In this document: in pieces, positions 21,561 to 44,221 of the stretch
How positions within the stretch are numbered: the stretch's first letter is position 1
Layout: each line of letters opens with the position of its first letter
Assembly (NCBI GenBank): GCA_964443855.1
Contig: CAYUEX010000001.1
Location: forward strand, 1 to 62,127
DNA from: an uncultured Halobacteria archaeon
GTDB lineage: Archaea > Halobacteriota > Syntropharchaeia > Alkanophagales > Methanospirareceae
Length of the DNA stretch: 62,127 nt
Reading direction: 5' to 3'
Program-made: the position numbers and the translations under genes
The notes under the pieces: model-generated
Seen by the model: only the letters and a program-made list of their open reading frames with translations
The model's database searches: none
What the model was told of the DNA's origin: nothing

Positions 21561-21562
21561 TT

Positions 21563-23052: not shown

Positions 23053-23053
23053 T

Positions 23054-28455: not shown

Positions 28456-28791
28456 ATGTTAGGTCCAACTGAGATGATGGTAATTGCAGTAGTAGCAATC
28501 GTTTTGTTATTCGGTGCAGCGAAGGTGCCGCAGCTTGCCAGGTCGTTTGGGCAGGCGATGGGAGAGTTCAAAAAAGCGAAAAAGGAATCCGAATTGACCC
28601 TCAAGAATTTCGAAGACTCTATAGTGGGCGACGAAAAAGTAATACCGGAAACGACCGCAAAAGCAGAGAAAAAGGATGACGAGGTCAATATACGAGAAGT
28701 AGCAGGGTATATGGGCATAGAAACTGAAGGGAAGACCGATGAGCAGTTAAAAGAGGAAGTTCAGGCAAAGATGAAAGCTGACTCCAAGTAA
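28456..28791 (+). CDS. tatA: Sec-independent translocase TatA/E
   Basis: MLGPTEMMVIAVVAIVLLFGAAKVPQLARSFGQAMGEFKKAKKE is the TatA TM helix plus amphipathic helix. ATG 28456 is preferred over the track start 28375. Confidence 0.85.
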   Translation: MLGPTEMMVIAVVAIVLLFGAAKVPQLARSFGQAMGEFKKAKKESELTLKNFEDSIVGDEKVIPETTAKAEKKDDEVNIREVAGYMGIETEGKTDEQLKEEVQAKMKADSK

Positions 28792-29271: not shown

Positions 29272-30264
29272 TTATAGCCCGATTGAGGTATAGAACGCTC
29301 CTATATTGGGCAACACTTCACCAAGGGGAACGTTCGTACCGAAAAGTACTACTCGTCCCATGATCTCACCGATGAGGACCACTACAAACAGAACGATTGC
29401 TATCATCGAAGCCATCGCCATGTTCTTCTTCGTTAGTGGCAATGCAAGTGCTATGGCGCATATGAGAGCCAAGCCTACACCTACAACCCATCGTGCCATA
29501 TAAAGTGTGGAGTATTCACCCGATAACATGCTCGTGAGCGTCTCACCCTGTGCTACTTGTGCGTATTCGGTCTCTGCAACTTCTAACATGCCAGTATGTG
29601 CGAAGAGCCCTACTGCCAGCACAATGACCATTACCAGCGAGATCCCCATCGTAATCCAGAGCATACGTGCTAAAGGCTCGTCTCCCTCTTTCTTCAACGT
29701 GTACTTCAGCGAAAGCACTGCTGCTACTGCCGTTACACCGCCCAGCAGGGCAGTAACGTAGAAGAACAGTATGATCGTCGAATGATTCAAAGAGGGCAGA
29801 GTGTATATCATGTATGCCGCCGCACTTATATAGGGAAACGTAAGTCCCACCAATGCAGCTAAGACTCCAACAGGTTTCCTGAGTGGCATGAGCTTCCCGA
29901 CTATCGGCGGTATCACTGGGAGCCATTTGAGGCTGCCGTATTCCGGCTCTAAGAGCCACATCGCGGTATATGCCACTGCTAAGATGACAAAAATCGTAAG
30001 CACCAGTACTTCTTGACTCAGTAATGATGAACTCACGTTTTTCGTCATTGTAAACATCGCTTGTATCGGTCGTGCCTCGTGAGAAAGTATACCCATCAGG
30101 CCAATAAAGGCAACTGGAACAGAGACCCATGCTCCTGTCTCAAAGAACTTCGCCTCATCCTTGCCCTTCGCGAGGAAATCTGCGATGACCATTGCTATCA
30201 GCGCACCCACTGCCATCTGACTGAACACCGTGAAGGTCACGTATGCGGTAACTGCACTACTCAT
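29272..30264 (-). CDS. DmsC/NrfD-type integral membrane anchor subunit
   Basis: About 8 TM helices. Alignable by eye to E. coli DmsC landmarks (TFTVFSQMAVGA; LSHEARPIQAMF…SSLLSQEV; LIGEIMGRVVLFG). Confidence 0.65.
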   Translation of the reverse strand: MSSAVTAYVTFTVFSQMAVGALIAMVIADFLAKGKDEAKFFETGAWVSVPVAFIGLMGILSHEARPIQAMFTMTKNVSSSLLSQEVLVLTIFVILAVAYTAMWLLEPEYGSLKWLPVIPPIVGKLMPLRKPVGVLAALVGLTFPYISAAAYMIYTLPSLNHSTIILFFYVTALLGGVTAVAAVLSLKYTLKKEGDEPLARMLWITMGISLVMVIVLAVGLFAHTGMLEVAETEYAQVAQGETLTSMLSGEYSTLYMARWVVGVGLALICAIALALPLTKKNMAMASMIAIVLFVVVLIGEIMGRVVLFGTNVPLGEVLPNIGAFYTSIGL

Positions 30265-30282
30265 TGTTATCCATTACCTCCT

Positions 30283-30822
30283 TTACACTCGCTCTTGCCA
30301 GGCAATTGTGTTCCGAGACTTTGCATCTCTATACTGTGGTAAGATTTCGTTTATGTCGCCTCCAAGACGGGCCTTGGTCGAGCAGAACAGTGCACACCTC
30401 GGGCTGGGTTCTCTATTGTTGGCTACCGGCACAAAAGGCTGCACGCATAAGGTGCACTTGTCCATTATCCCTTCATACTCTTCAGCCGCACCCTCCAGCT
30501 CATGAGGATATTGTGGTGCGCCAAATGGGCATGCCCACCCGCAATAGCCACAGCCGATGCACTTATCCTTATCCATCAGAACGATACCGTCTTCAGCTCG
30601 CTTCTCTATCGCCTTCACTGGGCATGCAGCCTCACAGGGAGGCTCCGTGCAGTGCATACAGGAAACAGGTATGTTCTTCTCTCCAGGTCGCCCCTCGTTA
30701 ATGGTCACAATTTTCACTCTGGCTGTTCCGTGAGGAACTTTGTTCTGGTCCTTGCAAATAGCAAAGCACGCTCCGCAGTTGATGCATTTCTCAATCACGT
30801 TCAGGAATTTATAGGTTACCAT
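30283..30822 (-). CDS. 4Fe-4S ferredoxin-type electron-transfer subunit (DmsB/FdnH-like, short, no TM helix)
   Basis: Four Cys clusters: CINCGACFAIC, CMHCTEPPCEAACP, CIGCGYCGWACP, CTLC…C..FC. Confidence 0.8.
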   Translation of the reverse strand: MVTYKFLNVIEKCINCGACFAICKDQNKVPHGTARVKIVTINEGRPGEKNIPVSCMHCTEPPCEAACPVKAIEKRAEDGIVLMDKDKCIGCGYCGWACPFGAPQYPHELEGAAEEYEGIMDKCTLCVQPFVPVANNREPSPRCALFCSTKARLGGDINEILPQYRDAKSRNTIAWQERV

Positions 30823-30837
30823 TTTTTACATTGCCTC

Positions 30838-33657
30838 CTAAGCCTTGTACACCTTGCACAGGCACGCTTTCGTCTCTTGCATGTTCGTCGACCTGTCGTA
30901 TGCGTCCACACAGATGATGTTAACTGAATCCCCAAGTGCGAGTTCCGCGGTTCCAGGTGGGTATCGGTCCTCATATGACTCACCTTCAAACCAGCCGGCC
31001 CAGTGATACGGACAGAATATGGTCTGCTCGTTCACACGCTCCGTCACGTTTGCTCTCACTTTGATCTTTCCTCTCAGTGTCTCGACCCAGACGAAATCCC
31101 AATGGGTGATACCGAGTTCCATTGCCGTGTTCGGATTAATCTCCGCGTACATTTCAGGTTGTAACTCCACCAAGTATTCACACGATCTCGTCTCAGCGCC
31201 GCCGCCCATGTGCTCGACCTGTCGTCCTGTGGTGAGTATATAGGGATAGCCCTCGTTCACCAGGTTCTTCCGCTGCTGTTGGATCGTCTTATACAAGCAC
31301 GGGATACGGTAGTTGTCTGCAACGTCATCGTAGGTTGGATATTTATCAATCAGGTCAGGTCGTGGACTCTCGATCGGTTCTCGGTGTATAGGAACTGGAT
31401 CAGGCAGGTCCCACGCTCTGAATCGTGCTCTTCCTGCTCCTGACGGGCAGATGTTCTTGTCAAGCAGCTCCTTGAAGTCTGAGTCGATTTCCAACTTCCA
31501 GCCGGTACCATCAGTGCCATCGGAGTTCTTCTCGTCATAGCCTTCTGGGTAACCGTATGCCGCGCCTAACATGCTCTCGCCATCGTCCGACAATGGATTT
31601 CCGGGTGTTGAGTCAGCACCTCTGAATCGGGGTCGATATTCGTTGCCGCCTTCCCAGACGGGTATATCATTTCGGTACAAGATCGGTGTTCCTGGGTGCT
31701 CATCATTCCAGCACGGCCATGGCAGTCCCCAGTATTCTCCTTTCACCGGGCCACTCTTTGCCTGGCAATCTTCGCAATCGAAGACGCTGCAATCGGTACG
31801 ACACTGCAGTTGCTGTCGCTTGAGCCGCTCTGGAGACTGGCGCATCATGATGACATTCGCGCCGAGATTAATCTCACGGAGCACATCCTCTGGATACTCG
31901 TTATAAGTGAAGTGTTCACCGAAGCCGAGTCTATCTGCCAGCTCCTTGATCATCCACCAGTCAGGCTTACTGTCGTATAAAGGCTCCACTAACTTGTTTC
32001 GCCACTGTACCTGCCGTGCACTGTTCGAAACGCTTCCGCTTTCCTCGAATTGCGTTGCCGCAGGCAGTACGATGATCCCGTCAGGTCGGTCCGCAAGTGA
32101 AGAAGCAATCGTCGCATGCGGGTCAACGCCCACAAGTAGTTCGACCTTCTCCATCGCCTTCTTCATCCGCTTCATTTCGGTGATCGAGTTCAGCGAATGA
32201 CCCCAGACGAACGCCATCTTGATCGGGTTTGGCTGATTGATCGGGAATTCCTCATTGAGCACACCTTCGTACCATCGTGAGACCGTTATTCCCGGCTTGT
32301 GCATCAGCGATCCACCATTGTGCTCCGCGAACTTGGCATGCATCTCCTCGTAGGTTATTGGTGCATGTCTGTTCCAGACGCCAATCCAATGCTTCCACGA
32401 GCCTTCGGTAAGGCCGTAGTATGCAGGCAGCCAGTGCGAAAGCACGCACATATCGGTTGCACCCTGCACGTTGTCGTGACCTCTGAATGCGTTGGTTCCT
32501 CCGCCAGGTCTGCCCGAATACCCCATAAGCATCTCAAGGCAAGCGAACGACCTGATGTTATTCGTTCCCACGGTGTGTTGTGTTGCGCCCATTGCCCAGC
32601 ATACACAATTAGCATAGTCCTCACCACGTGGTGGGAATGCCCAGTCACGTGCGACTTGCCGTATGGTATCTGCCGGAACCCAGGTAATGTCCTCCACAAC
32701 CTCAGGTGTGTACTCCTTTACGACGTCCCACCATTTAGCAAACCCGTAGGTTCTCTTTTCGATGAAGTCCTTGTTGTGCCAGTTGTTATTCACGATTACA
32801 TTGCAGATCCCCCAAATCAAGGGGATATCCGTTCCTGATCTGAATCGCACGTACATATCCGCCGCTGCGGCAGACTTTGTAAATCGCGGATCCATCACGA
32901 TGAACTTTGCGCCTCGCTTCTTTGCCTCGAGGATGTGCAGCATCGCAACAGGATGCGAGTTGGCTGCGTTCTCACCGCAGAACAGAATAACGCCGGAATT
33001 GCGCATGTCGTTCCACGGATTGGTCATCGCACCATAGCTCCAACTGTTCGCCAAACCGGCGACCGTCGTGGAGTGGCATATCCGTGCCTGATGGTCTACG
33101 TTGTTCGTACCGTTAAATGCCGCAAATTTCCTGAATAAGTAGCACTCTTCATTGCTCGTCTTGGCAGATCCCATGTAAAAGATCGAATCGGGCCCGTAAT
33201 TCGCCTTGATCTCCTTCATCTTGTTGGCGATCTTATCCAGGGCTTCAGTCCACGAGATTGCCTTCCACTGGCCCCCGACTTTCTCCATCGGAGTTTTTAG
33301 TCTGGTCTTTGAGTTGAGTATCTCTGCTATCGATGTTCCCTTAGAGCACATCGAGCCGCGATTTATCGGGTTCTCCAACCACGGTTCAAGACCGATGCAT
33401 ACACCGTCCTTTATTTTACCATGGAATCCACATCCCACTGCACAGTGCGAACAGGTAGATTTCACGAGCGTTACACCGGCTTCCTCAGGAGCCGCACTTG
33501 CAGTTTCAATCAAATCGCCAAGTTTGGAAGGATACGCACTGACGCCGCTGATACCACTCAGAGCCGCTGCAGTCCCTAAGGCACTCAGTTTAGTGAACAT
33601 CCGCCTTGACATTCTGATACCACTATTTTTACCTATAGATTTTGTTCTTGCCGCCAT
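30838..33657 (-). CDS. Tat-exported molybdopterin (bis-PGD) oxidoreductase catalytic subunit with FdnG-type (formate dehydrogenase-N-like) active-site motif, Cys variant
   Basis: Twin-arginine signal MSRRMFTKLSALGTAAALSG. FS0 motif CSHCAVGCG. HQARICHSTTVAGLANSWSYGAMTN matches the E. coli FdnG …ARV-U-HGPTVA…GAMTN with Cys in place of Sec. Confidence 0.8.
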   Translation of the reverse strand: MAARTKSIGKNSGIRMSRRMFTKLSALGTAAALSGISGVSAYPSKLGDLIETASAAPEEAGVTLVKSTCSHCAVGCGFHGKIKDGVCIGLEPWLENPINRGSMCSKGTSIAEILNSKTRLKTPMEKVGGQWKAISWTEALDKIANKMKEIKANYGPDSIFYMGSAKTSNEECYLFRKFAAFNGTNNVDHQARICHSTTVAGLANSWSYGAMTNPWNDMRNSGVILFCGENAANSHPVAMLHILEAKKRGAKFIVMDPRFTKSAAAADMYVRFRSGTDIPLIWGICNVIVNNNWHNKDFIEKRTYGFAKWWDVVKEYTPEVVEDITWVPADTIRQVARDWAFPPRGEDYANCVCWAMGATQHTVGTNNIRSFACLEMLMGYSGRPGGGTNAFRGHDNVQGATDMCVLSHWLPAYYGLTEGSWKHWIGVWNRHAPITYEEMHAKFAEHNGGSLMHKPGITVSRWYEGVLNEEFPINQPNPIKMAFVWGHSLNSITEMKRMKKAMEKVELLVGVDPHATIASSLADRPDGIIVLPAATQFEESGSVSNSARQVQWRNKLVEPLYDSKPDWWMIKELADRLGFGEHFTYNEYPEDVLREINLGANVIMMRQSPERLKRQQLQCRTDCSVFDCEDCQAKSGPVKGEYWGLPWPCWNDEHPGTPILYRNDIPVWEGGNEYRPRFRGADSTPGNPLSDDGESMLGAAYGYPEGYDEKNSDGTDGTGWKLEIDSDFKELLDKNICPSGAGRARFRAWDLPDPVPIHREPIESPRPDLIDKYPTYDDVADNYRIPCLYKTIQQQRKNLVNEGYPYILTTGRQVEHMGGGAETRSCEYLVELQPEMYAEINPNTAMELGITHWDFVWVETLRGKIKVRANVTERVNEQTIFCPYHWAGWFEGESYEDRYPPGTAELALGDSVNIICVDAYDRSTNMQETKACLCKVYKA

Positions 33658-33717
33658 TATTTCACCTCTTTCTCCTACTATTTTACCTCCAATTGTAATA
33701 ACTCGATACCTTCACTA

Positions 33718-33725
33718 TATATAAA
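33718..33725 (-). promoter_or_regulatory. TATA box (TTTATATA on the coding strand) about 60 nt upstream of the ATG
   Basis: Exact archaeal TATA-like octamer. The same octamer sits at the same distance upstream of the second Mo-enzyme gene. Confidence 0.3.
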
Positions 33726-34068
33726 AGCTTTTCGGTTTTGATAGCCCCATTCAAAAATAAGAACGTGCAGCGATCTAAGATTGTTCACCACACATGCTAC
33801 AGAGGGTTATTGTTGAGTTCGCTTACGAGACAAAGTTGTATGCACTACCTAAAAACCCTGCAGTGTTCCTCATGCAGTAGCTTTGTCTTTATTGGAATGC
33901 GGAGAACAACAATCGTCTCGTCAAAAGCTATGAATGATAGATGCTGGAACACAAGCCAATATCAGACAGGAAAATGAAGCGCCATAAACAGAATAAGAGC
34001 TGAAGGCGGCTTATACGTAAACGTTCTTAACCTGCTTAAAAAGAGGAAAAGAAGAGAGATATTCGTTT

Positions 34069-34719
34069 CTATCTCGTTCTTCTCAACAACAGATAAGTCA
34101 CCGCTAATACGCCGCCAACTGCGAAGAGGGCCTCATAACCGGGGGCTTTAGGTGTCGGTGTGGGACTCGTGGTTGGGGTTTTACTACTTCTCAGTGTTTG
34201 TACTGCCTGCTCTAAATCTCCCTGCAGCCTGCTAAGCGCTGCAATGGGTGTTGGTGGTACCAGCCCCAACGCATCAATTTCCTCAAGATGGCCTAGAGAA
34301 CTGCTGATATAACCAGCTGCTGTTTCTAACTCATCAGGATCGTACTGCAGTGCTCCTGACTCGATATACTGACAGCCCGATTTGAAATTCTCTAATGCTA
34401 ACGTCAAATGATTTTTCACTGGCTGCATCTCTGATGATACCTCATAACCTCCTAATTCGTCCAATGCCGCCGTAGCATCTTCATAGCCAGTACGTGCCCA
34501 TACCTCACAGGTCGTACAGTCGAAATTTTCTATAGCCTCCGCCGTATTTATCGTGTCGGTTTCTATTTTATTCATCGTCTTGTCATACCATTCCTCGAAT
34601 TCACTGTCTTCAAGGGGTTGCGCCTGTGCCACATCTGAAGCGCTTGCAAGGGCTAGTACGATGGTTAAACTTACAAGTAAAACCGTAGCAAGACATCCAA
34701 AAAATTTTGCTTTTCTCAT
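34069..34719 (-). CDS. Secreted helical protein with CxxC and a PGF-CTERM-like anchor (PGYEALF…LLLRR)
   Basis: Signal peptide …LALASASDVAQA. CTTC motif. Thr/Pro linker. C-terminal APGYEALFAVGGVLAVTYLLLRRTR. Confidence 0.55.
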   Translation of the reverse strand: MRKAKFFGCLATVLLVSLTIVLALASASDVAQAQPLEDSEFEEWYDKTMNKIETDTINTAEAIENFDCTTCEVWARTGYEDATAALDELGGYEVSSEMQPVKNHLTLALENFKSGCQYIESGALQYDPDELETAAGYISSSLGHLEEIDALGLVPPTPIAALSRLQGDLEQAVQTLRSSKTPTTSPTPTPKAPGYEALFAVGGVLAVTYLLLRRTR

Positions 34720-34925
34720 TTTTCACCTCCTTAAAGCTAAATGATTACGTATCGCATATAAAAAGTAATGAATATTTGATAAATTGAGCGGTAAACGTGT
34801 TTTATCATTGCAATTAAGAGATGGCAGCAGTTTTCATTTTGGATAGAACAAAAGTATGCTGTGGAAGAATAAGCTATATTCGAGATAGATTTATATATCC
34901 GTAATAGCATCCCCTTCATTAAGAA

Positions 34926-35318
34926 ATGAAAGATCCAGAGTGGAAGGAAAAGAAGAAAGAACTAACAGTGCTTCTTGAAAGAGAGGCGCTATTTCTTGAA
35001 ATTACCCGGCAGTTGTCCGGACGTGTACAGAATGTATTTGCTCGGCCGGAATCTCTTGAGAAATTAGCTGAGGAGCTAAAAGCATGTGAAACTGACATTG
35101 TCAAGCGCTATTTCTTTCCAGTCGACAAAACAATAGATACGTTTACCGATAAACCCTCAATTGCTCGTGAGGAACTGATTAAAGCAAGTACGGAAGATAA
35201 AGAGAAGCTCCTTCGGTTTATCGGTGTCCTCGACAAAGAGATTATAAATAAGGAGGAGGAGATCACCGAATTAAAGAAGGAGACTGAAAAAATGCGTGAA
35301 ATGCTTACGAACGTGTAA
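34926..35318 (+). CDS. Small coiled-coil hypothetical protein
   Basis: Glu/Lys-rich heptad-like sequence; no motif recognised. Confidence 0.4.
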   Translation: MKDPEWKEKKKELTVLLEREALFLEITRQLSGRVQNVFARPESLEKLAEELKACETDIVKRYFFPVDKTIDTFTDKPSIAREELIKASTEDKEKLLRFIGVLDKEIINKEEEITELKKETEKMREMLTNV

Positions 35319-35474
35319 GGCTTCTAATAGATACTGAAGAACTCGTCCCAAATCCCTTAGAAGCAAATTGGCACTCGTTGCAAAGAGCGTCTGGATAAAA
35401 TCCGCAACTCTTCATAGCTTGTTTGATAGGGCTATAAATAAATATGATGGAAGGGGTTTTCCCTGTATAGAACG

Positions 35475-36773
35475 ATGAAAAATCCCTACGAGCTGAGAGT
35501 TAGACTCATGTGCGACAAAGCGGGAGATAGAAGAACGTTTACGCCCCCTAAATTACCGCGGGGAACTGCTCTCTTTATTCTGTCACTTATCCTTATTTCA
35601 GGTATTGGAACAGTCACAATTCCTCCTGTAGCGCAAGCTGCTGGTAATGAAGCGCCACCGTTTAACCTTACAAGCATCGACGGAACGACTTTCAGTCTCA
35701 GTGACTACAGAGGAACGGTTGTGGTATTAGATTTAATGGCCACATGGTGCTCGCTCTGCGATAAGGAAATGAATGAGCTCTCGCGGTTGAGAGAAGCGTA
35801 CCCCGACGTGGTGATAATGACAATATCTGTTGACCCCACAGAGACTGACGAAATGTTGAGAGACTACAAAGAGAAACATAACGCAGACTGGCTATTTGCA
35901 CGCGATACCGATAATGTCTGGGATGATAAGTACCGGGACCTTGGTTTACCAACCATTGTTCTTATTGACCCTCAGGGGCACCGAAGCTTTCAAAAGGCGG
36001 ACTTTCTGCCGGTAGAAACACTGAGTTTGGAGGTTGAAAGGGCGTATTCAGGAGGTGATGAGGAACCGGAAGAACCGGAAGAACCAACGGAACCGAAATA
36101 CGCCGTTACGGGCTTATATGTTGGAGCTTTGTTATTGGGGCTTGCGAGTTTTTTTGCTCCCTGCGCGTTTCCGCTATTGCCGGGCTACATAAGCTACTAC
36201 CTAGGGAGATACGAAGGCGGACCAACGTTGAGCGACTCAGTGAAAGCGGGAATGGCTGCAGCGACAGGAATCAATGGCATGTTTGCGTTAATAGGTATTG
36301 CGGTGGCTGTTGGAGCAACAGCAGTTAGATCGTACCTTGAGCAGCTCACACCCGGAGTTGGCTTTATTATCGTCCTTTTAGGGCTTGCAATGGTTTTTGG
36401 CAAGACCGAAATCTTCGACAAATTCGGAGGAAAACTGTCATCGTATTCATCGAAATTCGGCGGAGGGACTGGGCTCTTTGGACTCTTTATGTACGGTGTT
36501 GGCTATGGGGTGGCGTCCATGGGATGCCAGGCTCCAGTATTCATTGCACTTCTATTTCAGGGCTTAGCTGCTGGCGGATTATTGGAAGCGTTCATGCTCT
36601 TTCTGTCATTTTCTATTGGGATGGGAAGCATGATGCTTGCCGTCAGTGTAATCGTGGGAACGGCGAAGACGACAATTTTGGAACGTGTGAGAAATATGAC
36701 TCCCTACATAAACAGAGCGTGTGGAGTCATACTCATCATTGTCGGCGTATACTTCCTATTAGAATCTTTTTGA
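35475..36773 (+). CDS. Fusion protein: N-terminal anchor + extracytoplasmic TlpA/ResA-like thioredoxin domain (WCSLC) + CcdA/DsbD-type transmembrane electron-transfer domain
   Basis: VVVLDLMATWCSLCDKEM. Acidic PEEPEEP linker. CcdA TM Cys motifs FFAPCAFPLLPGY and MGCQAPVF. Confidence 0.75.
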   Translation: MKNPYELRVRLMCDKAGDRRTFTPPKLPRGTALFILSLILISGIGTVTIPPVAQAAGNEAPPFNLTSIDGTTFSLSDYRGTVVVLDLMATWCSLCDKEMNELSRLREAYPDVVIMTISVDPTETDEMLRDYKEKHNADWLFARDTDNVWDDKYRDLGLPTIVLIDPQGHRSFQKADFLPVETLSLEVERAYSGGDEEPEEPEEPTEPKYAVTGLYVGALLLGLASFFAPCAFPLLPGYISYYLGRYEGGPTLSDSVKAGMAAATGINGMFALIGIAVAVGATAVRSYLEQLTPGVGFIIVLLGLAMVFGKTEIFDKFGGKLSSYSSKFGGGTGLFGLFMYGVGYGVASMGCQAPVFIALLFQGLAAGGLLEAFMLFLSFSIGMGSMMLAVSVIVGTAKTTILERVRNMTPYINRACGVILIIVGVYFLLESF

Positions 36774-36916
36774 CGCTGACACGATGGAGGCAGGGATTGA
36801 TCTTAGTTCGACTTACAAACTGCCTGTATTCTACACTACAGAATCAACAAGTTTACTACAATAGGTAAATTTATATAGCATAAACGTTCAATAGTCTAGC
36901 GAGGTGAACACTAAAA

Positions 36917-37927
36917 ATGGACAAAAAGAAAGTTGCCTCGGTGATTTTGATAGGTTCGATTCTGGTTGTCCCACTCATGGTTTCTAGTGTAGTATCGGCA
37001 GAGCGTATTGACATATCGGTGGACGAAGCGTATAAAATGCTACAGAAAAACCCTGACGACATTATTCTGCTGGATACCAGACCCGAGCAGATATACACTT
37101 CTGAGCACATAACGGGGCCAAATTATCATGTAGTGAACATACCCCTGAGTGTCGATACTACTGCTTTTGAAAGCGATATCGAGGAATTGGACAAGTCGAA
37201 AATTATTATCGCGTACTGTCAGGCGGGTCGTGCGAGTCAAGTAGCAGGCGATTTACTCCTCCAACACGGTTTCGAGCGCGTTTATACTATGGTTGGGGGG
37301 ATCAATGCATGGAAAGAGAAATATCCGACGACGCTCACATCGACTCAGCCCACGAAAGCACCAATAGGTGCTATTAGGGCACCCTCGTTTACGCTTACAC
37401 GCATAGATGGAACGCCGTTCAGTCTCAGTGATTACCAAGGAAAGGTCGTGGTATTGACTCTGATTCTAACAACCTGTCATCTGTGCCAAGAAGAGATGGG
37501 AGAACTCGCACAGTTACGACAAGCGTATCCCGACGTCGCTATTCTAACCGTGTCTATAGATCCGTTGGAGACAGACGAAAATCTGAGAAGTTTCAAAGAG
37601 AAATATAACGCAGACTGGACATTTGCACGGGATACCAGCAAGGTTGCTTCGCGGTATCAAGGCTACGTTTTGGCCACACCAACCATTGTTGTTATCACTC
37701 CTGAGGGGTACATAAGTTTCCGGAAAGTAGATGTTGTCCCATTAGAAGAGCTTAAGTCAGCAATTGAGAGAGCTTACCAGGAAGAGGGAGAACTGATACC
37801 GAAAGCAACACCGACTCCCGAGGAAGGGCAGATTCCCGGATTCGAAGCGACGGCGACGGTAGCGATATTCTGCATTCTTGTCGTATCGCAGTGGCTGGAG
37901 AGAAAAAAAAGAGAAAGAGGTAAGTAG
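36917..37927 (+). CDS. Fusion protein: signal peptide + rhodanese domain (active-site CQAGRAS) + TlpA-like thioredoxin domain (TCHLC) + PGF-CTERM anchor
   Basis: IIAYCQAGRASQ…GGINAW (rhodanese). VVVLTLILTTCHLCQEEM (thioredoxin). C-terminal IPGFEATATVAIFCILVVSQWLERKKRERGK. Confidence 0.75.
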   Translation: MDKKKVASVILIGSILVVPLMVSSVVSAERIDISVDEAYKMLQKNPDDIILLDTRPEQIYTSEHITGPNYHVVNIPLSVDTTAFESDIEELDKSKIIIAYCQAGRASQVAGDLLLQHGFERVYTMVGGINAWKEKYPTTLTSTQPTKAPIGAIRAPSFTLTRIDGTPFSLSDYQGKVVVLTLILTTCHLCQEEMGELAQLRQAYPDVAILTVSIDPLETDENLRSFKEKYNADWTFARDTSKVASRYQGYVLATPTIVVITPEGYISFRKVDVVPLEELKSAIERAYQEEGELIPKATPTPEEGQIPGFEATATVAIFCILVVSQWLERKKRERGK

Positions 37928-37981
37928 GAGAGTAGCCTAGAAGTTTTGGGATCGCCTGCCGGGTAGTCAAATTTACGCGGT

Positions 37982-38474
37982 CTATGGGGATACGGAAAGT
38001 TGGTTCGCCGATCTTTCCTGTTTTATCTTTGCAATCTCTTCTGGCGTACCGAAAGCTAACGCACCGGTCAAGCACGTGTGAACACATGCAGGGTCTAAGC
38101 CTTTATCGATCCTGGGGTAGCACGATATACATTTTTGCATCAACCCATCGCTTCCGATTTGAGGTACTGCAAAGGGGCATGCCATTACGCAATATCCGCA
38201 ACCGATACACTTGTCCTTGTCGTTCAGAACGATACCATCTGCTCGTTGATATATCGCACCCATCGGACATGCTGCCATGCAATAGGGACGTGAGCAATGG
38301 AAGCATGCGATCGAGACAAAATCTCTGGACGGGTTAGGATAGTTTCCTCCCTCCAGTTCAAGTCACTCTCCTCCATCTTACTCCAGTCTCAACGTCGTTT
38401 TGCTGTTTACAGGCGACTTCACAGGCCCGGCAATTAATGCACCGGGCTCCATCAAACAGAAATTGTTGTACCAT
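37982..38474 (-). pseudogene. PsrB/DmsB-like 4Fe-4S subunit interrupted by a 1-nt frameshift at about 38358-38363
   Basis: An ATG 2 nt after the upstream stop gives MVQQFLFDGARCINCRACEVACKQQNDVETGVRWRRVT*. The next frame continues LELEGGNYPNPSRDFVSIACFHCSRPYCMAACPMGA… into track ORF 37982-38278. Joined, this reads as a canonical 4-cluster ferredoxin of about 163 aa. Confidence 0.65.
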
Positions 38475-38476
38475 CT

Positions 38477-40711
38477 TTATCCCTCCTTATATATCCTTAC
38501 AAATGTCTCATCCATTGGGCATACCCCGCCTATTGGATCTGCACCGGCTTTGATGAAATCGCCGTCGTTGAGGCCTTTTCCGTAGGCTAACGTGAGATCA
38601 GGTGATGTATGCCCGAATCCATGCAGCATGAAAACGGTATCAGGTCTTATTTGTTCGGTTACCTTAGCTTTTATCTTGCCCTTACTGAGTTCGTTTTCAA
38701 CCCAGATGTATTCCACATTCATGATCCCTAAATCCATAGCGGTTTCTCTATTTATCCAGAGTTCATTTTCTGAGCAGATTTCGTTCAGGTACGCATTGTC
38801 AAACGTTGCGGGATTTGCATGGGTATGCACTGCGATATGTCCGTGCAGTAGTCTAAACATGCCATTGGGAGCTTCTGTTGGTGGCAAAAATGTTGGTAAT
38901 GGGTCAAATCCATTTGCCTCAAGTTTCTTCGAATAAAGCTCTATTTTACCGGTAGGCGTGTTTATTTTTACCCCTTCAAGCCCTTTCAGCTCAGGACTTA
39001 TACCAGAAGACCAAATCGAATTCTCTTTGAAATACTCTTTGTTAATTCCAAGTGGCTTGAGTTGAGCATTGATGTAGTCGTCTAACTCGAAGTCGAAATA
39101 ATTACCGATCCCTACTTTCTCAGCTAACTCTTTAAGTATCCAGAACCCCGGCTTTGACTCGTACATCGGCTCTACACAAGGCTGGCGTAAAGCGACCTTC
39201 GGCGATTTCCCTGTAATGACCATCGGTGGCTCATATCTCTCTAAATAGGTACACTCCGGTAGGATAACGTCAGCATACCAGGCTGTATCGCTTGGTAATA
39301 TATCAATAGCTACGAGCAAATCGAGTTTCTTGAACGCTTCGATAACTCTATTTCTATCTGGCATCGCAAGCAACGGGTTAGAACGATACACAATCAAGCC
39401 CTTTACCGGATAGGGGTCTTCATTTATGATTGCATCGGGCAATAACTGCCAGAGCCCGTGGCTTGCGGGAACCAATGGGTATTTGTCTGGGATACCATCC
39501 ACCCGCTTAGCGGTGATCTCAGGATATGCTGGTGGTTTTATGTCACCCAGTGCTACTCCTCTTAAATAAAATAGCCCTCCTGGCTTATTTATGTTTCCAA
39601 CCAGCGCATTCAGAATTAATATTCCTCTACTTGTCTGTGCCTCGTTCGCGTATCCCTTTGGGTGCCAGTTTGGATGTGCTACCGCAGGCTTTGTAGTAGC
39701 GAACTCCACGGCAATCCTCTCAATCTGCGCTGCAGGAACACCAGTAACTCCTTCTGCCCATTCTGGTGTATAATCACCGATAAACCCTTTTAGCTCTTCA
39801 AAGCCATACGTGTATTTAGTCAAGAAGTCCTCGTCATAGAGTCCTTCTCTAATAATAACATTCATCATCGCCAGGACGAACGCCAGGTCCGTTCCAGGTT
39901 TTATTGGTATCCACTCGTCCGCCTTTGAAGCAGTAACCGTAAACCGGGGGTCTAAATATACCAATTTCGCTCCTTTCGTAATAGCAGCGGATAAAGCTTG
40001 AACGGACGAATTTGCCGGAGTTTCAAAGCTGTTTCTGCCAAAGAGCATGATATACTTTGCGTTTGTGTAATCAACGGCATTACCAATATGCGCACCTAAT
40101 GTTGTAGCATCCGCTACGATCCTCGAGATTTTGCAAGTCCCAAGAATAGAGAAGAAATTAGGAGAGCCTAAGGCTTTCTGGAACCTCGATAATAAAGGCG
40201 TCATTAAGCTGCACATTTGTACCATTGCGATGCTCTCTGGGCCGTATTTCGCCTCAATATCTTTAAGCTTCCCCGCCGTGTAATCTAATGCTTCACCCCA
40301 GGTTGCGCGCTTCCAGCCACCCGCACCTCTCTCACCGGTCCGTATAAGTGGGTATTTAACCCTGTTTGGATTATATATCACCTGTTCTGCCGAGTTTCCG
40401 CGTGCGCAGAGTTTCCCTTTTGAGTGTGGCTCCTGTGGATTTCCTTCTATCGATTTTACTACTCCTCCATCACATGTTACTTTTATTCCACATCTGAATG
40501 GGCACATCTCGCATATACTATACACAACACTTTCTGTTTCTAAGGGAGCCGCAATTGCTGGTTCAATCAACGTACCGAACTGCTTCATCGGATAAGCGCC
40601 GACATTGCCGATTCCGCTCAGCGCAGCTGCTGTTCCTAAAGCTGTTAGTTTGGTAAAAGTTCGCCTTGATACTCTTGCGCCACAACAATCAACATTTGTT
40701 CGTACATCCAT
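38477..40711 (-). CDS. Tat-exported molybdopterin oxidoreductase, polysulfide/thiosulfate/tetrathionate reductase (PsrA/PhsA)-like
   Basis: Signal VSRRTFTKLTALGTAAALSG. CEMCPFRCG FS0 motif. …KGKLCARGNS…, …GSPNFFSILGTCKIS… resemble Wolinella PsrA landmarks. Confidence 0.75.
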   Translation of the reverse strand: MDVRTNVDCCGARVSRRTFTKLTALGTAAALSGIGNVGAYPMKQFGTLIEPAIAAPLETESVVYSICEMCPFRCGIKVTCDGGVVKSIEGNPQEPHSKGKLCARGNSAEQVIYNPNRVKYPLIRTGERGAGGWKRATWGEALDYTAGKLKDIEAKYGPESIAMVQMCSLMTPLLSRFQKALGSPNFFSILGTCKISRIVADATTLGAHIGNAVDYTNAKYIMLFGRNSFETPANSSVQALSAAITKGAKLVYLDPRFTVTASKADEWIPIKPGTDLAFVLAMMNVIIREGLYDEDFLTKYTYGFEELKGFIGDYTPEWAEGVTGVPAAQIERIAVEFATTKPAVAHPNWHPKGYANEAQTSRGILILNALVGNINKPGGLFYLRGVALGDIKPPAYPEITAKRVDGIPDKYPLVPASHGLWQLLPDAIINEDPYPVKGLIVYRSNPLLAMPDRNRVIEAFKKLDLLVAIDILPSDTAWYADVILPECTYLERYEPPMVITGKSPKVALRQPCVEPMYESKPGFWILKELAEKVGIGNYFDFELDDYINAQLKPLGINKEYFKENSIWSSGISPELKGLEGVKINTPTGKIELYSKKLEANGFDPLPTFLPPTEAPNGMFRLLHGHIAVHTHANPATFDNAYLNEICSENELWINRETAMDLGIMNVEYIWVENELSKGKIKAKVTEQIRPDTVFMLHGFGHTSPDLTLAYGKGLNDGDFIKAGADPIGGVCPMDETFVRIYKEG

Positions 40712-40771
40712 TTTTTTGCCTCCGTTCTACCTACAAAATTTACATGTACGTATACTAAAAGGTGGGATGAG

Positions 40772-40779
40772 TATATAAA
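40772..40779 (-). promoter_or_regulatory. TATA box (TTTATATA on the coding strand) about 60 nt upstream of the ATG
   Basis: Exact octamer read from the sequence. Confidence 0.3.
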
Positions 40780-40812
40780 CCTAGAGGGTTTTTACTTAAT
40801 AGTGGATATACG

Positions 40813-40882
40813 TGAACAAAATTCTATTTTTTTAAAACGAATAAATACAAAAATGAACAAAATCCAATTTTATTGAACAAAT
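40813..40882. promoter_or_regulatory. Three direct copies of TGAACAAA(A)T upstream of the TATA box, next to the Lrp gene
   Basis: TGAACAAAAT at 40813-40822 and 40854-40863; TGAACAAAT at 40874-40882. Start-to-start spacing is 41 and 20 nt. A partial TGAACA lies at 40967-40972. Confidence 0.35.
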
Positions 40883-40975
40883 GTAGACAAATAAAGGTGT
40901 CTGGTAGATACTTTAGCCTGAAGTAGCTATAAATAAACTAAAACATCAAAAAAAACTATCGAGAAATGAACACGC

Positions 40976-41416
40976 TCACAACTTGACCTTAAGCTCTTCT
41001 TTCAGTATCTTGAGCACGACTTCTGAATTCACACTTTCCACACCTTCGATTTCTTTTATCTTCTCAATAAAAGCCCCACATCTCCCCCGTTCAGGGCACT
41101 TAGTGATAGCCATGAGGTCAAAATCACCGGTTATGTGGTAAATGCTACAACTTCCTTCCAGTTCCGCTATCTCTTTCCCCACCTTTTCGATACCACATCC
41201 CGACTTGGTTTTTATCCTCGTGATCAAGGTGGCCATACCGATCTCAGCTGTATTGAGGATCGTAGTATATTCACAGATAATCCCTTCTTCACCCAGCCTT
41301 TTTACTCTATCGCTCACCGTAGCAGTACTGATTTTTATCTTCTGCGCAATCTTCGTGAAAGATTGACGTGCATCCAACTGGAGTTCTCCCAATATTTTCT
41401 TATCTAATTCATCCAT
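40976..41416 (-). CDS. Lrp/AsnC-family transcriptional regulator
   Basis: N-terminal HTH (LDELDKKILGELQLDARQSFTKIAQKIKISTATVSDRVKRL) plus a RAM/ACT-like C-domain. Confidence 0.85.
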   Translation of the reverse strand: MDELDKKILGELQLDARQSFTKIAQKIKISTATVSDRVKRLGEEGIICEYTTILNTAEIGMATLITRIKTKSGCGIEKVGKEIAELEGSCSIYHITGDFDLMAITKCPERGRCGAFIEKIKEIEGVESVNSEVVLKILKEELKVKL

Positions 41417-41503
41417 TTATCTTCGAGTAATTTTTAGTCTCTTCCCTTGCTATCTCCGCCAATGCTAACAATTCTTCTTCTCATTGTTATAAAAAACATA
41501 TTT

Positions 41504-42166
41504 CTACACAGTCTCTAATAAATCGCTGATCACCGTATCGTCCAATAGAATGAAGCCTTTTGTGAGCTTTGCAATGCCTTTAAAGAAATCAGCTATCTCA
41601 TACGTGTAGATCGCATCGCAGTAATTCGGCACCCATTTCAACATATGGTCATCGAGAAATTCTCTCTGTAGTTTGAGACATTCTCCCAATCGTTTTTGAG
41701 TGGCCGCAGATAATTCCTCCTCGCAGAGATAATGCATAAACTTGAGTTCAAATCCGATGTGGTCTTCGGGCTCTTTATACTCTCGTGATTTCACGATACC
41801 TGCTTTCCTGTACGCTTGCTTCACCGCCACCAGCGACTCACCCATCCGCCTTCCGCTCACCCAAGACGCCTCGTAAGGCTCCACCGGGGGTCTAAAGGGT
41901 CCGATGAACAAAAGGGTATATTCTCCTACCAGATCGTCATACAAAGCATCAATATCCTTGCCTTTGCTCTTCTCCATAAACTCGTTTAATAAACGGAAAC
42001 CCTCGAAAAGCTCTGTATTTGTGTCTAACGATTTCAGCTCCTGAAACTGGAACTTTCCGTTCACTAAATCCGCTGCAAGTTCTCGTGCCGGCTCTTCCAC
42101 ATACATCCGAAACAAAAAGGCATAAAAGTTTCTTCTTGTCTCCAAAATTGCTTCTATTTCGCTCAT
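41504..42166 (-). CDS. TorD/DmsD/NarJ-family redox-enzyme maturation chaperone
   Basis: Size and pattern (R.NFYAFLFRMY.EEP…, …L..EYT.LFIGP…PYES.W…, DHI..EL.FM) fit this family. Located within a Mo-enzyme island. Confidence 0.65.
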   Translation of the reverse strand: MSEIEAILETRRNFYAFLFRMYVEEPARELAADLVNGKFQFQELKSLDTNTELFEGFRLLNEFMEKSKGKDIDALYDDLVGEYTLLFIGPFRPPVEPYEASWVSGRRMGESLVAVKQAYRKAGIVKSREYKEPEDHIGFELKFMHYLCEEELSAATQKRLGECLKLQREFLDDHMLKWVPNYCDAIYTYEIADFFKGIAKLTKGFILLDDTVISDLLETV

Positions 42167-44221
42167 TTACTCATTCTCCAATTTTTCTAATGACATCTCA
42201 ACGGCTTTTGCCGGTCTGCACTTTTTACAATATCTGAGCAGGTCTAACCGCTCCCCTATGTTAAGCTCTCCCTCGCCTTCGCCTTCTTTCAATATCTGCC
42301 CCATTCGTTCAAATGCGGATTTCGGCATAAATAGTTCTCCACATCCCGCGCATGCGATAAACTCGACTTCAACCAGTTTTTTGCTTCCTTCTTCAGCCAG
42401 TTGAGAAAAGTCAAGCACCGGCTTTAACGCAATCGCTTCTTCCGGGCAGGCTTGCTTACACATACCACAAGCAATGCAGTGCCCGTATACAAAATCAATC
42501 TTAGTATCGTCCTTACTCAGCGCGTTTGTCGGGCACATGGTCACACACGCATTGCAGAGTGTGCACTGCGAATTGATAGAGAGATCCGCGAACGGATAAG
42601 ACGTATTTTCCTCTATTAACGTTGGACGTACGCCAGTCTTCAGACGAAGGGTCTGTATTAAGCTCAGCAGAATATCCCGTTTCGGTTTGGTAAAATCGAT
42701 CTCCATTGGCTTCTTCTTTCTGATAGACGAAGGACTGAGCTGGGTAACGAAATTAGTAACTTTCTTAGCGAAATCCTCCACGTCGAACTGGGCATCACCC
42801 AGCAATAGTACCCGGTCTCCCAAATAGAAGGCGGATAACGTCTTCTGCGCAAATGTTACCGCAGATTCGATCTGTTCATGGTGGCTGTTCTCGCATTCCC
42901 AGAGAATAACCCCATCAGCTCCGCGTTCAAACGCACTGAGTATATGGGCCTCTGAAACCATACCAACGGACGGTACGAAGAGCGGTACTACTGCGGGATA
43001 ATGAATCTTCTTTCTGCCAGTGGCATTTAGCTTTTCGACGTTCTCTTGATCTGTGAATAAGAGAACTTTTGGGCGTAAATCCTCGGATAATAAGCTTTCT
43101 ATTTGTGAGTACAGCAATTGATTGGGATAGTCACGCAGTTGCGGAACTGATAATGGACATAAAGAAGCGCAGAGTCCGCAGCCAAGACATCGCACATCGC
43201 TGAACACCATTTTGACACCATCTCTCATGATGGCCTCGTGAGGGCAGGGTAAACAATACTCACACCCAATTAATTTGCTCCTACCACTTGCGCACCGTTT
43301 CAACTCTAATTCTAAATACTTTTCCTTCCCTATTTCGCCCAAATTAGAAACTAACTCCGGTGCTTTCCGTAATGCATCTTCGTAATCGTCAGCTTTATAG
43401 ATACCAAAGTAGTTAGGTCCATGCCAGTCCTTATCAATCACAAGAATCTGCCCTACGTGTAACACCTCCTGGTTGTGGAATTCAATAGCACCTGTTGGAC
43501 ATACTTTAACGCAATCGCCACATTCGTCACAAGCCTCGTCAATCGTGTATACCGCATCGTAGTGTACCGCATTTTTCGGGCACGCGTCAACGCAAAGGCC
43601 GCAGGAGATACACTTCTCTAAATCTATGTCGCGCTCGATCTCGACGTCAAAGTCACCAATCTCTCCCGTTATGCCTTTAAGCGAGCCAATATGGAGTTCC
43701 GGCTCAGCACACCACTCGTGCGCATTCTCCGTCAGCAGATGGACGTAAGCCCCGGTGGAAAGACCTTTCGCAACTTCTAACGCTCCGTTTTCCTCGGACC
43801 CTATCACTAACACATCATAACCCACCTTCAAATCGATCTTTTCAGGCCTCGGAAGTGTTTCTTCCATTTCACCATAGCTGATAGCGGCTTTAATCAGGCT
43901 CTTCGTTTTTTCCGTACCTTCTTTCTTTCCGTGTACCCAACCGCAGTGTTCCCTGAGGTTGATAAGGTAAGTATCACAGCCAAATCCAGATGCTACCCGT
44001 TCAAAGATGCGCCTCTTCTCTGTACACGCCGCTATGACTATGGCATCAAGATTCAATCGCCTGACGTCGTCTACAATATAGTCCAAGTCTCTCTGGCAGA
44101 GCTGATCAACCGTCTCAACGATCTCAACTTCCTTCTTTATGCTCTTTCTAACGTTTCTAAAATCTATGTCCATAGTGCTGTTGCACGTGCAGAGAAAAAC
44201 ACCCAGTTTCATGTATTTCAC
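42167..44221 (-). CDS. Cytoplasmic polyferredoxin with HdrA-insert-like N-terminus and MvhD-like domain
   Basis: LGVFLCTCNSTMD start. At least six CxxCxxCxxxCP-type motifs. An MvhD-like stretch (VLLFTDQEN…GADGVILWEC). No signal peptide. The stop abuts the TorD-like gene. Confidence 0.65.
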   Translation of the reverse strand: MKYMKLGVFLCTCNSTMDIDFRNVRKSIKKEVEIVETVDQLCQRDLDYIVDDVRRLNLDAIVIAACTEKRRIFERVASGFGCDTYLINLREHCGWVHGKKEGTEKTKSLIKAAISYGEMEETLPRPEKIDLKVGYDVLVIGSEENGALEVAKGLSTGAYVHLLTENAHEWCAEPELHIGSLKGITGEIGDFDVEIERDIDLEKCISCGLCVDACPKNAVHYDAVYTIDEACDECGDCVKVCPTGAIEFHNQEVLHVGQILVIDKDWHGPNYFGIYKADDYEDALRKAPELVSNLGEIGKEKYLELELKRCASGRSKLIGCEYCLPCPHEAIMRDGVKMVFSDVRCLGCGLCASLCPLSVPQLRDYPNQLLYSQIESLLSEDLRPKVLLFTDQENVEKLNATGRKKIHYPAVVPLFVPSVGMVSEAHILSAFERGADGVILWECENSHHEQIESAVTFAQKTLSAFYLGDRVLLLGDAQFDVEDFAKKVTNFVTQLSPSSIRKKKPMEIDFTKPKRDILLSLIQTLRLKTGVRPTLIEENTSYPFADLSINSQCTLCNACVTMCPTNALSKDDTKIDFVYGHCIACGMCKQACPEEAIALKPVLDFSQLAEEGSKKLVEVEFIACAGCGELFMPKSAFERMGQILKEGEGEGELNIGERLDLLRYCKKCRPAKAVEMSLEKLENE

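Follow-up and report, generated by a model that had tools for sequence, protein, structure and literature searches.

A formate dehydrogenase island with a putative surface rhodanese-thioredoxin cassette in an ANME-1 archaeon

A formate dehydrogenase locus and its accessory genes

The 62,127-nucleotide stretch of DNA analysed here (the window; positions 1 to 62,127 of contig CAYUEX010000001.1, assembly GCA_964443855.1, from an uncultured Halobacteria archaeon) carries a 15-kb gene island at positions 29,272 to 44,221. The island combines genes for a formate dehydrogenase (FdhABC) with a three-gene thiol and sulfur-transfer cassette, consisting of cc130, a thioredoxin-CcdA fusion (Trx-CcdA) and a rhodanese-thioredoxin fusion (Rhod-Trx). 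It also holds a gene pair for a second enzyme resembling polysulfide reductase (PsrAB), an Lrp-type regulator, a TorD-like chaperone and a polyferredoxin (Table 1). The island appears to be where anaerobic methanotrophic archaea of group 1 (ANME-1) encode a membrane-bound formate dehydrogenase that faces outward, together with its support functions, and the cassette most likely serves that enzyme, a reading to which we give about even chances. The anatomy of the island and the co-inheritance of the cassette with the fdh genes, as judged from sequence comparison, are solid, and the biochemical role that we infer for the cassette is moderately likely.

The window is an ANME-1 (Methanophagales) contig. 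Where homologues of the fusion proteins, PsrA and the secreted protein PGF216 are named, the names are Methanophagales, ANME-1-THS, GoMg4, Candidatus Methanophagaceae and Candidatus Methanospirareceae. The assignment is made because these names are all of ANME-1 type and because the window contains a cluster of MvhD, FrhB-like and HdrCBA genes.

A preliminary description of this DNA had placed and annotated the island, and the open reading frame list and domain scans agree with it in position and domain content for every gene it named; the conserved cc130 reading frame, a member of the cassette, was missing from its list. Both catalytic subunits had been described as enzymes exported by the twin-arginine (Tat) pathway and carrying a bis(pyranopterin guanine dinucleotide) (bis-PGD) cofactor, and this was borne out, one being of the formate dehydrogenase type and the other of the Psr/Phs type. 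The second enzyme had been given an iron-sulfur (FeS) subunit. Its catalytic reading frame is intact, and the FeS gene proved to be frameshifted and not a 98-residue reading frame. The protein described as secreted, with a CxxC motif and a PGF-CTERM-like tail (PGF216), has the signal peptide and the tail, and the second cysteine of the motif is not invariant. Topology signals agree with the outward orientation proposed for both fusion proteins, and the CcdA fusion, suggested as a means of reductant export, has both transmembrane cysteines that fit it for this.

Table 1. Positions of the island genes and the adjoining tat genes in the window
Feature	Position	Strand	Basis
tatC	26660-27409	-	Pfam TatC (149 and 145 bits for the two tatC)
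tatC	27436-28239	+	Pfam TatC (149 and 145 bits for the two tatC)
tatA	28375-28791	+	Pfam TatA_B_E 51 bits
FdhC, NrfD/DmsC-type anchor	29272-30264	-	Pfam DmsC 55 bits, NrfD 35 bits
FdhB, 179-aa FeS subunit, four cysteine motifs	30283-30822	-	Pfam Fer4_11
FdhA, 939-aa bis-PGD catalytic subunit	30838-33657	-	RRxFxK Tat leader; full-length match to 9VAP
PGF216, 216-aa secreted protein	34069-34719	-	Signal peptide and PGY/transmembrane/RRTR tail
cc130, 130-aa cytoplasmic open reading frame	34926-35318	+	Orphan family
Trx-CcdA fusion	35475-36773	+	Motifs WCSLC, APCAFP, GCQAPV
Rhod-Trx (rhodanese-Trx-PGF-CTERM fusion)	36917-37927	+	Pfam Rhodanese 54 bits, AhpC-TSA 67 bits
psrB-like FeS gene, frameshifted	37982-38474	-	Aligned with intact L085 orthologue
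PsrA/PhsA-like 744-aa bis-PGD subunit, reading frame intact	38477-40711	-	2VPW match
Lrp/AsnC regulator	40976-41416	-	Pfam HTH_AsnC and AsnC_trans_reg
TorD/DmsD-family chaperone	41504-42166	-	Pfam Nitrate_red_del
Polyferredoxin, 684 aa, with FlpD/MvhD domain	42167-44221	-	Pfam Fer4 families and FlpD

A conserved core with a variable slot

The window was compared with 12 related lineages, using DNA fetched around homologues of its genes. The starting set was made up of cassette-bearing contigs, and the loci compared were picked solely for the length of their contig. Scans of genome and metagenome contigs with the Rhod-Trx alignment relied on peptide patterns from its generic thioredoxin part; the matches listed were unrelated bacterial TlpA-like genes and one useful locus, L005.

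The gene order that recurs has fdhC-fdhB-fdhA on one strand, cc130, Trx-CcdA and Rhod-Trx on the other, then a slot of variable content, and finally the TorD-like chaperone and the polyferredoxin. This core order was found in at least 10 ANME-1 lineages at 55-90% amino acid identity, including loci with different flanks, and the clustering of the island is therefore not due to chance. The full order of fdhCBA, PGF216 where present, cc130, Trx-CcdA, Rhod-Trx, slot, TorD and polyferredoxin is seen in the window and in loci L085, L087, L090, L092, L173, L175 and L178. The tatC-tatC-tatA genes lie upstream of fdhC in L085, L087, L092, L173 and L174 and are absent there in L090 and L175. The downstream flanks differ in L175 and L178, and the flanks at L090 differ as well, which argues that the core moves as a unit.

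The slot holds psrBA and Lrp in the window (psrB frameshifted), in L085 and L086 (psrA frameshifted) and in L175, where both psr genes are intact and directly follow Rhod-Trx. It is occupied by a NiFe hydrogenase with hyp genes in L090 and by a second Rhod-Trx copy in L087 to L089, and it is empty in L092, L173 and L178 (ANME-1-THS). It is also empty in L091 and L005, whose contigs are cut upstream of the cassette, and the L174 contig ends after Trx-CcdA. At every locus with a visible upstream side, nine of nine, the cassette abuts fdhA.

The GoMg4 loci, L176 and L177, carry psrAB and fdhABC without the cassette. Here the genes lie on one strand in the order polyferredoxin, TorD, Lrp, psrA, psrB, fdhA, fdhB, fdhC, with 200 bp between psrB and fdhA. 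The GoMg4 FdhA is divergent, being 57-60% identical to the others and lacking a four-cysteine insert described below, and the GoMg4 PsrA is 86% identical to that of the window. A second GoMg4 PsrA, P0228 (C5S30_05720), was found on a 7-kb contig and falls in the same 90%-identity cluster as the window PsrA. The GoMg4 bin may mix two related populations, which weakens whole-genome statements on GoMg4.

The presence of the cassette without psr in many lineages, the presence of psr without the cassette in GoMg4 and the frameshifts in psr together argue that the cassette tracks the formate dehydrogenase, and it appears to co-vary with Fdh and not with Psr. The TorD-like chaperone and the polyferredoxin likewise appear to belong to the Fdh core. 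Lrp was present only together with psrAB among the compared loci (window, L085, L175 and L176). It had been counted as part of the whole island, and it appears instead to belong to the psr insert.

The formate dehydrogenase FdhABC

FdhA aligned over its full length with the FdhA of Shewanella oneidensis (PDB 9VAP, E = 1e-247), whose structure is that of the tungsten-containing SoFdhAB (PMC13066108). The motifs ARICHSTTVAG, containing Cys194-His195, and FRGHDNVQGA are identical in FdhA and the solved SoFdhA. Both motifs are conserved in 10 ANME-1 orthologues, in which the active-site pair Cys194-His195 is invariant, and an alignment of eight orthologues shows no variation in the cysteines of cluster FS0 (C69, C72, C76 and C104). 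The catalytic role of the Cys-His pair and of the arginine motif residues comes from established formate dehydrogenase structures. Because of the full-length homology to 9VAP, the active-site motifs and these invariant residues, the first enzyme of the island is predicted to be a Tat-exported, outward-facing, Cys-type tungsten or molybdenum bis-PGD formate dehydrogenase with an NrfD/DmsC-type anchor. FdhA scored below the curated equivalog cut-offs of TIGR01591 (548 vs 666 bits) and TIGR01553 (387 vs 814 bits); its match to 9VAP argues that these models are too narrow. We also considered that FdhA might be a selenoprotein in relatives of the window and rejected this, as ten of ten orthologues have Cys and a short gene call in L173 is a start-codon artefact.

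FdhB has neither a signal peptide nor a hydrophobic segment in the transmembrane scan and is therefore probably exported together with FdhA. Its best NCBIfam match, FDH3_beta, reached 166 bits, under the cut-off of 240. FdhC has eight hydrophobic segments and no haem, is 56-88% identical across 9 related loci and is the only anchor gene in the island. FdhA, FdhB and the quinone-facing NrfD/DmsC-type FdhC are thus predicted to make up the enzyme.

The FdhA insert mentioned above, QCRTDCSVFDCEDC (C-x3-C-x4-C-x2-C; C619, C623, C628 and C631), spans residues 619-631, and the Shewanella FdhA has no counterpart of it. Seven ANME-1 orthologues carry the insert, L087 retains two of the four cysteines, and L092 and GoMg4 have none. 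The insert could form two surface disulfides or a metal site.

A shared leader, a chaperone and a polyferredoxin

FdhA carries the twin-arginine leader SRRMFTKL, which fits the adjacent TorD-family chaperone, and the protein is predicted to be folded and loaded with cofactor in the cytoplasm. FdhA and PsrA (33480-33657 and 40535-40711) are identical at 37 of 57 positions (65%) within their first 60 residues and are 31% identical in the rest. L175 and L085 retain the common leader, SRRTFTKLTALGTAAALSGIS...AYP...LIEPASAAP, as does the otherwise divergent FdhA of GoMg4, and the likeness of the two leaders recurs in each lineage looked at; a different leader is found on the L090 hydrogenase small subunit. 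At the DNA level the leaders of FdhA and PsrA are only ~70% identical, which points to selection acting on the peptide and not to a recent gene conversion. The shared leader suggests that one TorD-family chaperone serves both FdhA and PsrA.

The chaperone itself matched PF02613 at 115.7 bits (cut-off 22.2) and fell under the cut-offs of the NCBIfam TorD and DmsD equivalogs. It is conserved at 60-75% identity in 11 of 11 related loci, always beside the island. The polyferredoxin gene abuts the TorD gene, and the pairing is kept in all related loci. The polyferredoxin has an HdrA-type N-terminal domain, ferredoxin domains and an FlpD/MvhD domain (residues 390-495), with no flavin (FAD) domain and no transmembrane segment. 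Its PDB matches are HdrA (residues 4-155 and 567-651), MvhB and FwdF, and its NCBIfam matches to HdrA2, HdrA and NapF are partial and under cut-off. By analogy with napF-napD, which their placing recalls, TorD and the polyferredoxin may form a cytoplasmic maturation pair for FdhA.

The thiol cassette

Pfam and transmembrane scans of Trx-CcdA identified an N-terminal anchor, a ResA/TlpA-like thioredoxin that faces outward (WCSLC) and a CcdA/DsbD core of six helices. The Pfam matches are AhpC-TSA/Redoxin and DsbD_TM (PF02683, 37.2 bits vs a cut-off of 27.1), and matches to the NCBIfam ResA, TsoB and DsbD models were all under cut-off. The two CcdA transmembrane cysteines lie one per helix, in FAPCAFP and MGCQAPV.

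Rhod-Trx is built from a signal peptide, a single-Cys rhodanese domain (YCQAGRAS), a flexible linker, a TlpA/ResA-like thioredoxin domain (TCHLC) and an archaeosortase-type tail. The tail consists of an invariant PGF, a transmembrane segment and the sequence KKRERGK. Across 17 homologues, Cys101, C187xxC190 and P307-G308-F309 do not vary. Among solved structures, the rhodanese domain is closest to 6MXV, followed by Wolinella Sud (1QXN, E = 4e-9) and GlpE, the last somewhat weaker; the best matches of the thioredoxin domain are ResA, Etrx (2YP6, 4HQZ) and TlpA. An AlphaFold2 (AF2) model contains two folded domains joined by a disordered linker (residues 144-156), with a pTM of 0.43 and no confident inter-domain packing. 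The thioredoxin domains of Trx-CcdA and Rhod-Trx are paralogues, 52-61% identical, and such paralogy is what a two-step relay would look like.

The small helical protein cc130 is cytoplasmic, with no signal peptide, no transmembrane segment and no invariant cysteine. Its motif ELKACExxIVKRYFFPIDKTI is kept in 8 loci, and the family has 5 representatives among 1.84 billion proteins and no family assigned. In L178 the cc130 stop and the Trx-CcdA start are separated by a gap of 1 nt. It is the first gene of the cassette, which runs cc130, Trx-CcdA, Rhod-Trx and is divergent from fdhCBA.

Among the compared loci, the window, L085, L087 and L090 alone have PGF216 in this place, and it is an accessory part. 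It is a five-helix bundle followed by a Thr/Pro linker and a PGF-CTERM-like tail (PGY, transmembrane segment, RRTR), with no Pfam match of its own; two relatives match PF18204 (PGF-CTERM). Its 39 homologue clusters all have ANME-1-type names, and C68 and C116 are invariant. The fold of the AF2 core (pLDDT ~98) gave no PDB match under E = 0.1.

Two further arrangements were seen around cassette-like genes. A cysteinyl-tRNA synthetase gene stands between Trx-CcdA and Rhod-Trx in L085 (8457-9818) and L092 (8412-9509), two rather distant lineages whose Rhod-Trx proteins are 80% and 58% identical to that of the window. Adjacent, unfused rhodanese and TlpA-like genes occur on the metagenome contigs L097 (1438-2535) and L099 (9836-10951); L099 is evidently bacterial, and its pair lies beside type IV pilus genes (pilMNOPQ).

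The Psr-like enzyme and Lrp as a decaying insert

PsrA aligned with Thermus PsrA (2VPW) at E = 8e-153, with the Mo-ligand Cys aligned (LGTCKISR vs SLCTAPR) and with the Tat leader and FS0 present. Its score against NCBIfam PhsA, 589 bits, is under the cut-off of 694. Among the matches listed, relatives above 72% identity form six clusters with ANME-1 names; the next ones drop to 50% to ~45%, and those that are named are bacterial. PsrA is an ordinary member of its clade. No NrfD-type anchor gene (psrC) was found beside psrBA in the window, L085, L175 or L176, where fdhC is the only NrfD-type gene.

Read directly from the sequence, psrB starts at 38474, reaches a premature TGA at 38360-38358 and continues in the +1 frame. 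Alignment with the intact 163-aa orthologue of L085 traced the defect to a single 1-nt insertion near 38360-38361, and removal of one base gave a complete 163-aa four-cluster protein. Four assemblies (ENA, two from JGI, and Logan) share the stretch 34897-41158 at 100% or 99.98% identity. As these assemblies come from different sources, though possibly from one population, a one-off assembly error is unlikely. Selenocysteine insertion and a programmed frameshift were rejected, because read-through of the TGA leads to a TAA 8 codons on and because the L085 orthologue shows a plain 1-nt insertion. The psr operon of the window genome is therefore predicted to be inactivated.

In the closest relative of the window, L085 (12729-12750) and L086 (GCA_964400255.1, SRR8652715), psrB is intact, and a CCCCGGGGGG run in psrA has gained 2 nt that break the gene in two. 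This lesion is an independent hit on the same psr operon. Collectively, psrAB and Lrp appear to be an accessory insert in the variable slot that is decaying or being lost in the window lineage. One further assembly, L001, is 100% identical to the window up to position 41261, inside Lrp, and diverges from 41262 (L001 6363-6441), pointing to variation between strains or to recombination with a breakpoint in the regulator gene.

DNA around the island

An MCM helicase gene comes after the island. A B12-binding radical S-adenosylmethionine (SAM) gene immediately precedes tatC (24885-26648, plus strand), as it does in L092, L173 and L174, with no evident link to the island. Directly upstream of this gene and the tat genes, on the minus strand at 18846-24543, are MvhD, an FrhB/FdhB-like protein, HdrC, HdrB and a 904-aa HdrA, both halves of which bind flavin, making up an unusual ANME Hdr cluster of the kind treated by Chadwick et al. 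HycI, present in L090 (11143-18372), was also found just upstream of the radical SAM and tat block in L173 and L174. Farther away, a low-GC block (10435-12359; 37% vs ~47% elsewhere) holds two open reading frames (275 and 345 aa) without a Pfam match and may be foreign DNA.

Proposed function and alternative explanations

GlpE-type rhodaneses use thioredoxin as a sulfur acceptor. In the pathway that we propose, the CcdA core would use thiol-disulfide exchange to move reducing equivalents through the membrane to the outward thioredoxin fused to it, which would in turn reduce the paralogous thioredoxin domain of the surface-tethered Rhod-Trx. The reduced domain would then recycle the single rhodanese cysteine from a persulfide or another oxidised state. 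Such a relay would amount to a sulfane-sulfur transferase, or a persulfide reductase, that thioredoxin drives at the cell surface. Since the cassette travels with Fdh, its likeliest client would be the exposed formate dehydrogenase in a sulfidic habitat. The service might consist in keeping FdhA cysteines reduced, those of the insert included, or in adding or removing sulfane sulfur at the W/Mo-sulfido/Cys site. At loci with intact psrAB, Rhod-Trx could hand sulfur to Psr too, and the psr insert, having no anchor of its own, would borrow the Fdh leader and chaperone. A more specific version, which we regard as a long shot, casts the cassette as an extracytoplasmic maintenance system in which the rhodanese, recycled by thioredoxin, would add sulfane sulfur to the metal-sulfido/Cys site or trim it there and so re-activate desulfo or over-sulfurated Fdh after export.

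Several observations weigh against a formate dehydrogenase client. GoMg4 has Fdh, of the divergent type, and Psr with no cassette at the locus, so Fdh is not strictly dependent on the cassette. The FdhA of L092 lacks the four-Cys insert and the cassette is kept there. Among solved enzymes the closest relative is SoFdhAB, which works without thiol activation (PMC13066108). Unfused rhodanese and TlpA-like pairs are found in bacteria with no nearby Mo enzyme, which indicates that such a pair can act as a general module of the envelope. Moreover, adjacency of cassette and fdh within one archaeal order could partly reflect vertical inheritance.

The preliminary description had favoured a different client, with two enzymes bracketing a module in which a surface rhodanese, as in Sud of Wolinella, would gather polysulfide sulfur for the Psr-like reductase and the CcdA fusion would provide reductant, the whole acting in sulfur respiration or electron exchange. 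The resemblance of the rhodanese domain to Sud stands, the second enzyme is of the Psr/Phs type with its Mo-ligand Cys kept, intact psrBA directly follows Rhod-Trx in L175, and Fdh, Psr and Sud together make up the formate-polysulfide chain of Wolinella. The expected co-occurrence of the fusion proteins with psrA-like genes fails, however. The cassette occurs without psr in at least six lineages (L087, L092, L173, L178, L091 and L005, the last two cut upstream), with a hydrogenase in place of psr in L090, and GoMg4 has intact psrAB-fdhABC and no cassette. The bracketing by two enzymes is accordingly limited to some lineages, and in L087, L092, L173 and L178 the cassette lies next to fdhCBA alone of the two enzymes. 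Add to this that psrB is broken in the window and psrA in L085, that Psr has no anchor gene of its own, and that Sud works without thioredoxin. A Sud-to-Psr relay cannot be the main job of the cassette here, and we consider the sulfur-respiration explanation as a whole improbable.

An alternative that dispenses with both enzymes is a general envelope thiol-reducing pathway of the CcdA and ResA/CcmG kind, for cytochrome c maturation (Ccm) or the protection of surface cysteines, the adjacency to fdh being incidental. The thioredoxin domains are indeed closest to ResA, TlpA and CcmG, several homologues were named 'cytochrome c-type biogenesis protein' by JGI, and the bacterial pairs noted above stand away from Mo enzymes. 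GoMg4, with no cassette at its fdh locus, belongs to a genus reported to lack cytochromes c and Ccm (PMC9012536), an observation that counts against the formate dehydrogenase reading in that it fits a cytochrome-linked role too. Yet ANME-1-THS, of the same 'Methanoalium' clade (PMC9576274) and reported second-hand in PMC10692758 to be without multihaem cytochromes, carries the cassette beside fdh within a complete fdh-cassette-TorD-polyferredoxin core. The gene that the cassette abuts at the nine loci is never a ccm gene, and there is no CxxCH protein or ccm gene in the 62-kb window or in any related locus; within these loci the Trx and CcdA genes do not track cytochrome c maturation, which had been raised at the outset as the outcome that would speak against a link to the Mo enzymes. 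CcmABCEF, without CcmH, is listed for most ANME, and Fdh is sporadic in ANME-1 where cytochromes are nearly universal (Chadwick 2022, PMC9012536). These points weaken the case for a role in cytochrome maturation, and we judge the general pathway unlikely.

The cassette might also act as the physiological reductase of a regulatory or structural FdhA disulfide, with C619/C623/C628/C631 as the candidate and the rhodanese secondary, by analogy with the C845-C872 switch, reversible by dithiothreitol (DTT), of the tungsten formate dehydrogenase of Desulfovibrio vulgaris Hildenborough (DvH-FDH). A disulfide switch is documented in a periplasmic formate dehydrogenase (Oliveira 2024, as cited in PMC13066108). 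Each of the 7 main-type FdhA proteins linked to a cassette has the insert, and the FdhA of GoMg4, which has no cassette, lacks it. Against this, L092 without the insert and L087 with two of its four cysteines both keep the cassette, SoFdhAB is insensitive to DTT (PMC13066108), and the invariant rhodanese cysteine is left unexplained. The insert as sole client of the cassette was not sustained, given L092, and we hold the disulfide switch in general to be doubtful.

Returning to the formate dehydrogenase as the client, the island bears on how ANME-1 dispose of the electrons of methane oxidation, a question of which the sporadic outward-facing Fdh is a part. Fdh, a cassette for reductant export with a surface rhodanese, a chaperone acting on a shared leader and an HdrA/MvhD-type polyferredoxin form a concrete gene set for it. 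The accessory, decaying status of the psr genes removes the tempting but weak reading of polysulfide respiration at the surface. Should the cassette indeed act on the metal-sulfido site of Fdh or on its cysteines, it would represent a new kind of extracytoplasmic enzyme maintenance, with relevance for oxygen- and sulfide-tolerant CO2-reducing catalysts. Were the loading and trimming of sulfur correct, the cassette would provide the first in-vivo repair route dedicated to the bis-PGD sulfido ligand and would bear on formate as an extracellular electron carrier of ANME-1.

Comparison with known systems

The formate dehydrogenase part of the island, a membrane-bound secreted enzyme, has already been described for ANME-1 (Chadwick et al. 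2022; Meyerdierks et al. 2010). Chadwick et al. 2022 reported a secreted, membrane-bound Fdh with DmsC-like genes, occurring sporadically, in five ANME-1 genomes (PMC9012536), and the DmsC-like anchor is shared with the window. The FdhABC of Shewanella oneidensis is alike in its Tat-exported Cys-type catalytic subunit, its formate dehydrogenase active-site motifs, its four-cluster FdhB and the full-length homology of SoFdhA. It differs in having a cytochrome b as anchor and FdhT and FdhX as accessory genes (PMC13066108), whereas the window has an NrfD/DmsC-type anchor and, as accessory genes, the TorD-like chaperone and the polyferredoxin derived from HdrA/MvhD.

Wolinella succinogenes combines a periplasmic single-Cys rhodanese (Sud), a Psr-type reductase (PsrABC) and an outward-facing Fdh (FdhABC) in one organism. 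There Sud is a free dimer; in the window the rhodanese is fused to a thioredoxin and a membrane tail, the cassette does not appear to co-vary with psr, and the psr genes form a pseudogene operon with no PsrC of their own. TsoB (NCBIfam NF045694; PMC13188914) joins a rhodanese and a DsbD/CcdA core in one bacterial system, and both window fusions match its model, although at 56 and 34 bits vs a cut-off of 805, with no selenocysteine and with the domains split over two proteins. It is described as a selenoprotein resembling a rhodanese/DsbD fusion, and the review lists no function for it (PMC13188914).

The arrangement had been put forward as one not previously described. This holds for the cassette, on which no paper was found: the literature search returned no text with 'ANME-1' and 'rhodanese' together, nor any that connects ANME-1 to CcdA or DsbD. 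It does not hold for the formate dehydrogenase, as noted above.

Functionally, the proposed relay has two close parallels. In the CcdA-Etrx-MsrAB2 system of Streptococcus pneumoniae, CcdA feeds surface-anchored TlpA/ResA-like thioredoxins that recycle an outside partner enzyme (PMC3914529). The partner there is a methionine sulfoxide reductase acting in oxidative stress, and in the window it would be a rhodanese in a strictly anoxic, sulfidic organism. In the SoxV system, a dedicated CcdA-type transporter (SoxV, a CcdA orthologue) passes reductant to a periplasmic thioredoxin (SoxW/SoxS) that keeps the active Cys of a sulfur-carrying protein functional, a task other than cytochrome maturation (Appia-Ayme & Berks 2002, as cited in PMC10451225). 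The window has no sox genes, its candidate client Cys sits in a rhodanese that is itself fused to a thioredoxin, the transporter is thioredoxin-fused as well, and the setting is an archaeal host with an archaeosortase-type anchor. Relative to the known CcdA-thioredoxin export pathways, the cassette is therefore new in its rhodanese fusion, its archaeosortase anchor and its fixed partnership with an outward-facing formate dehydrogenase.

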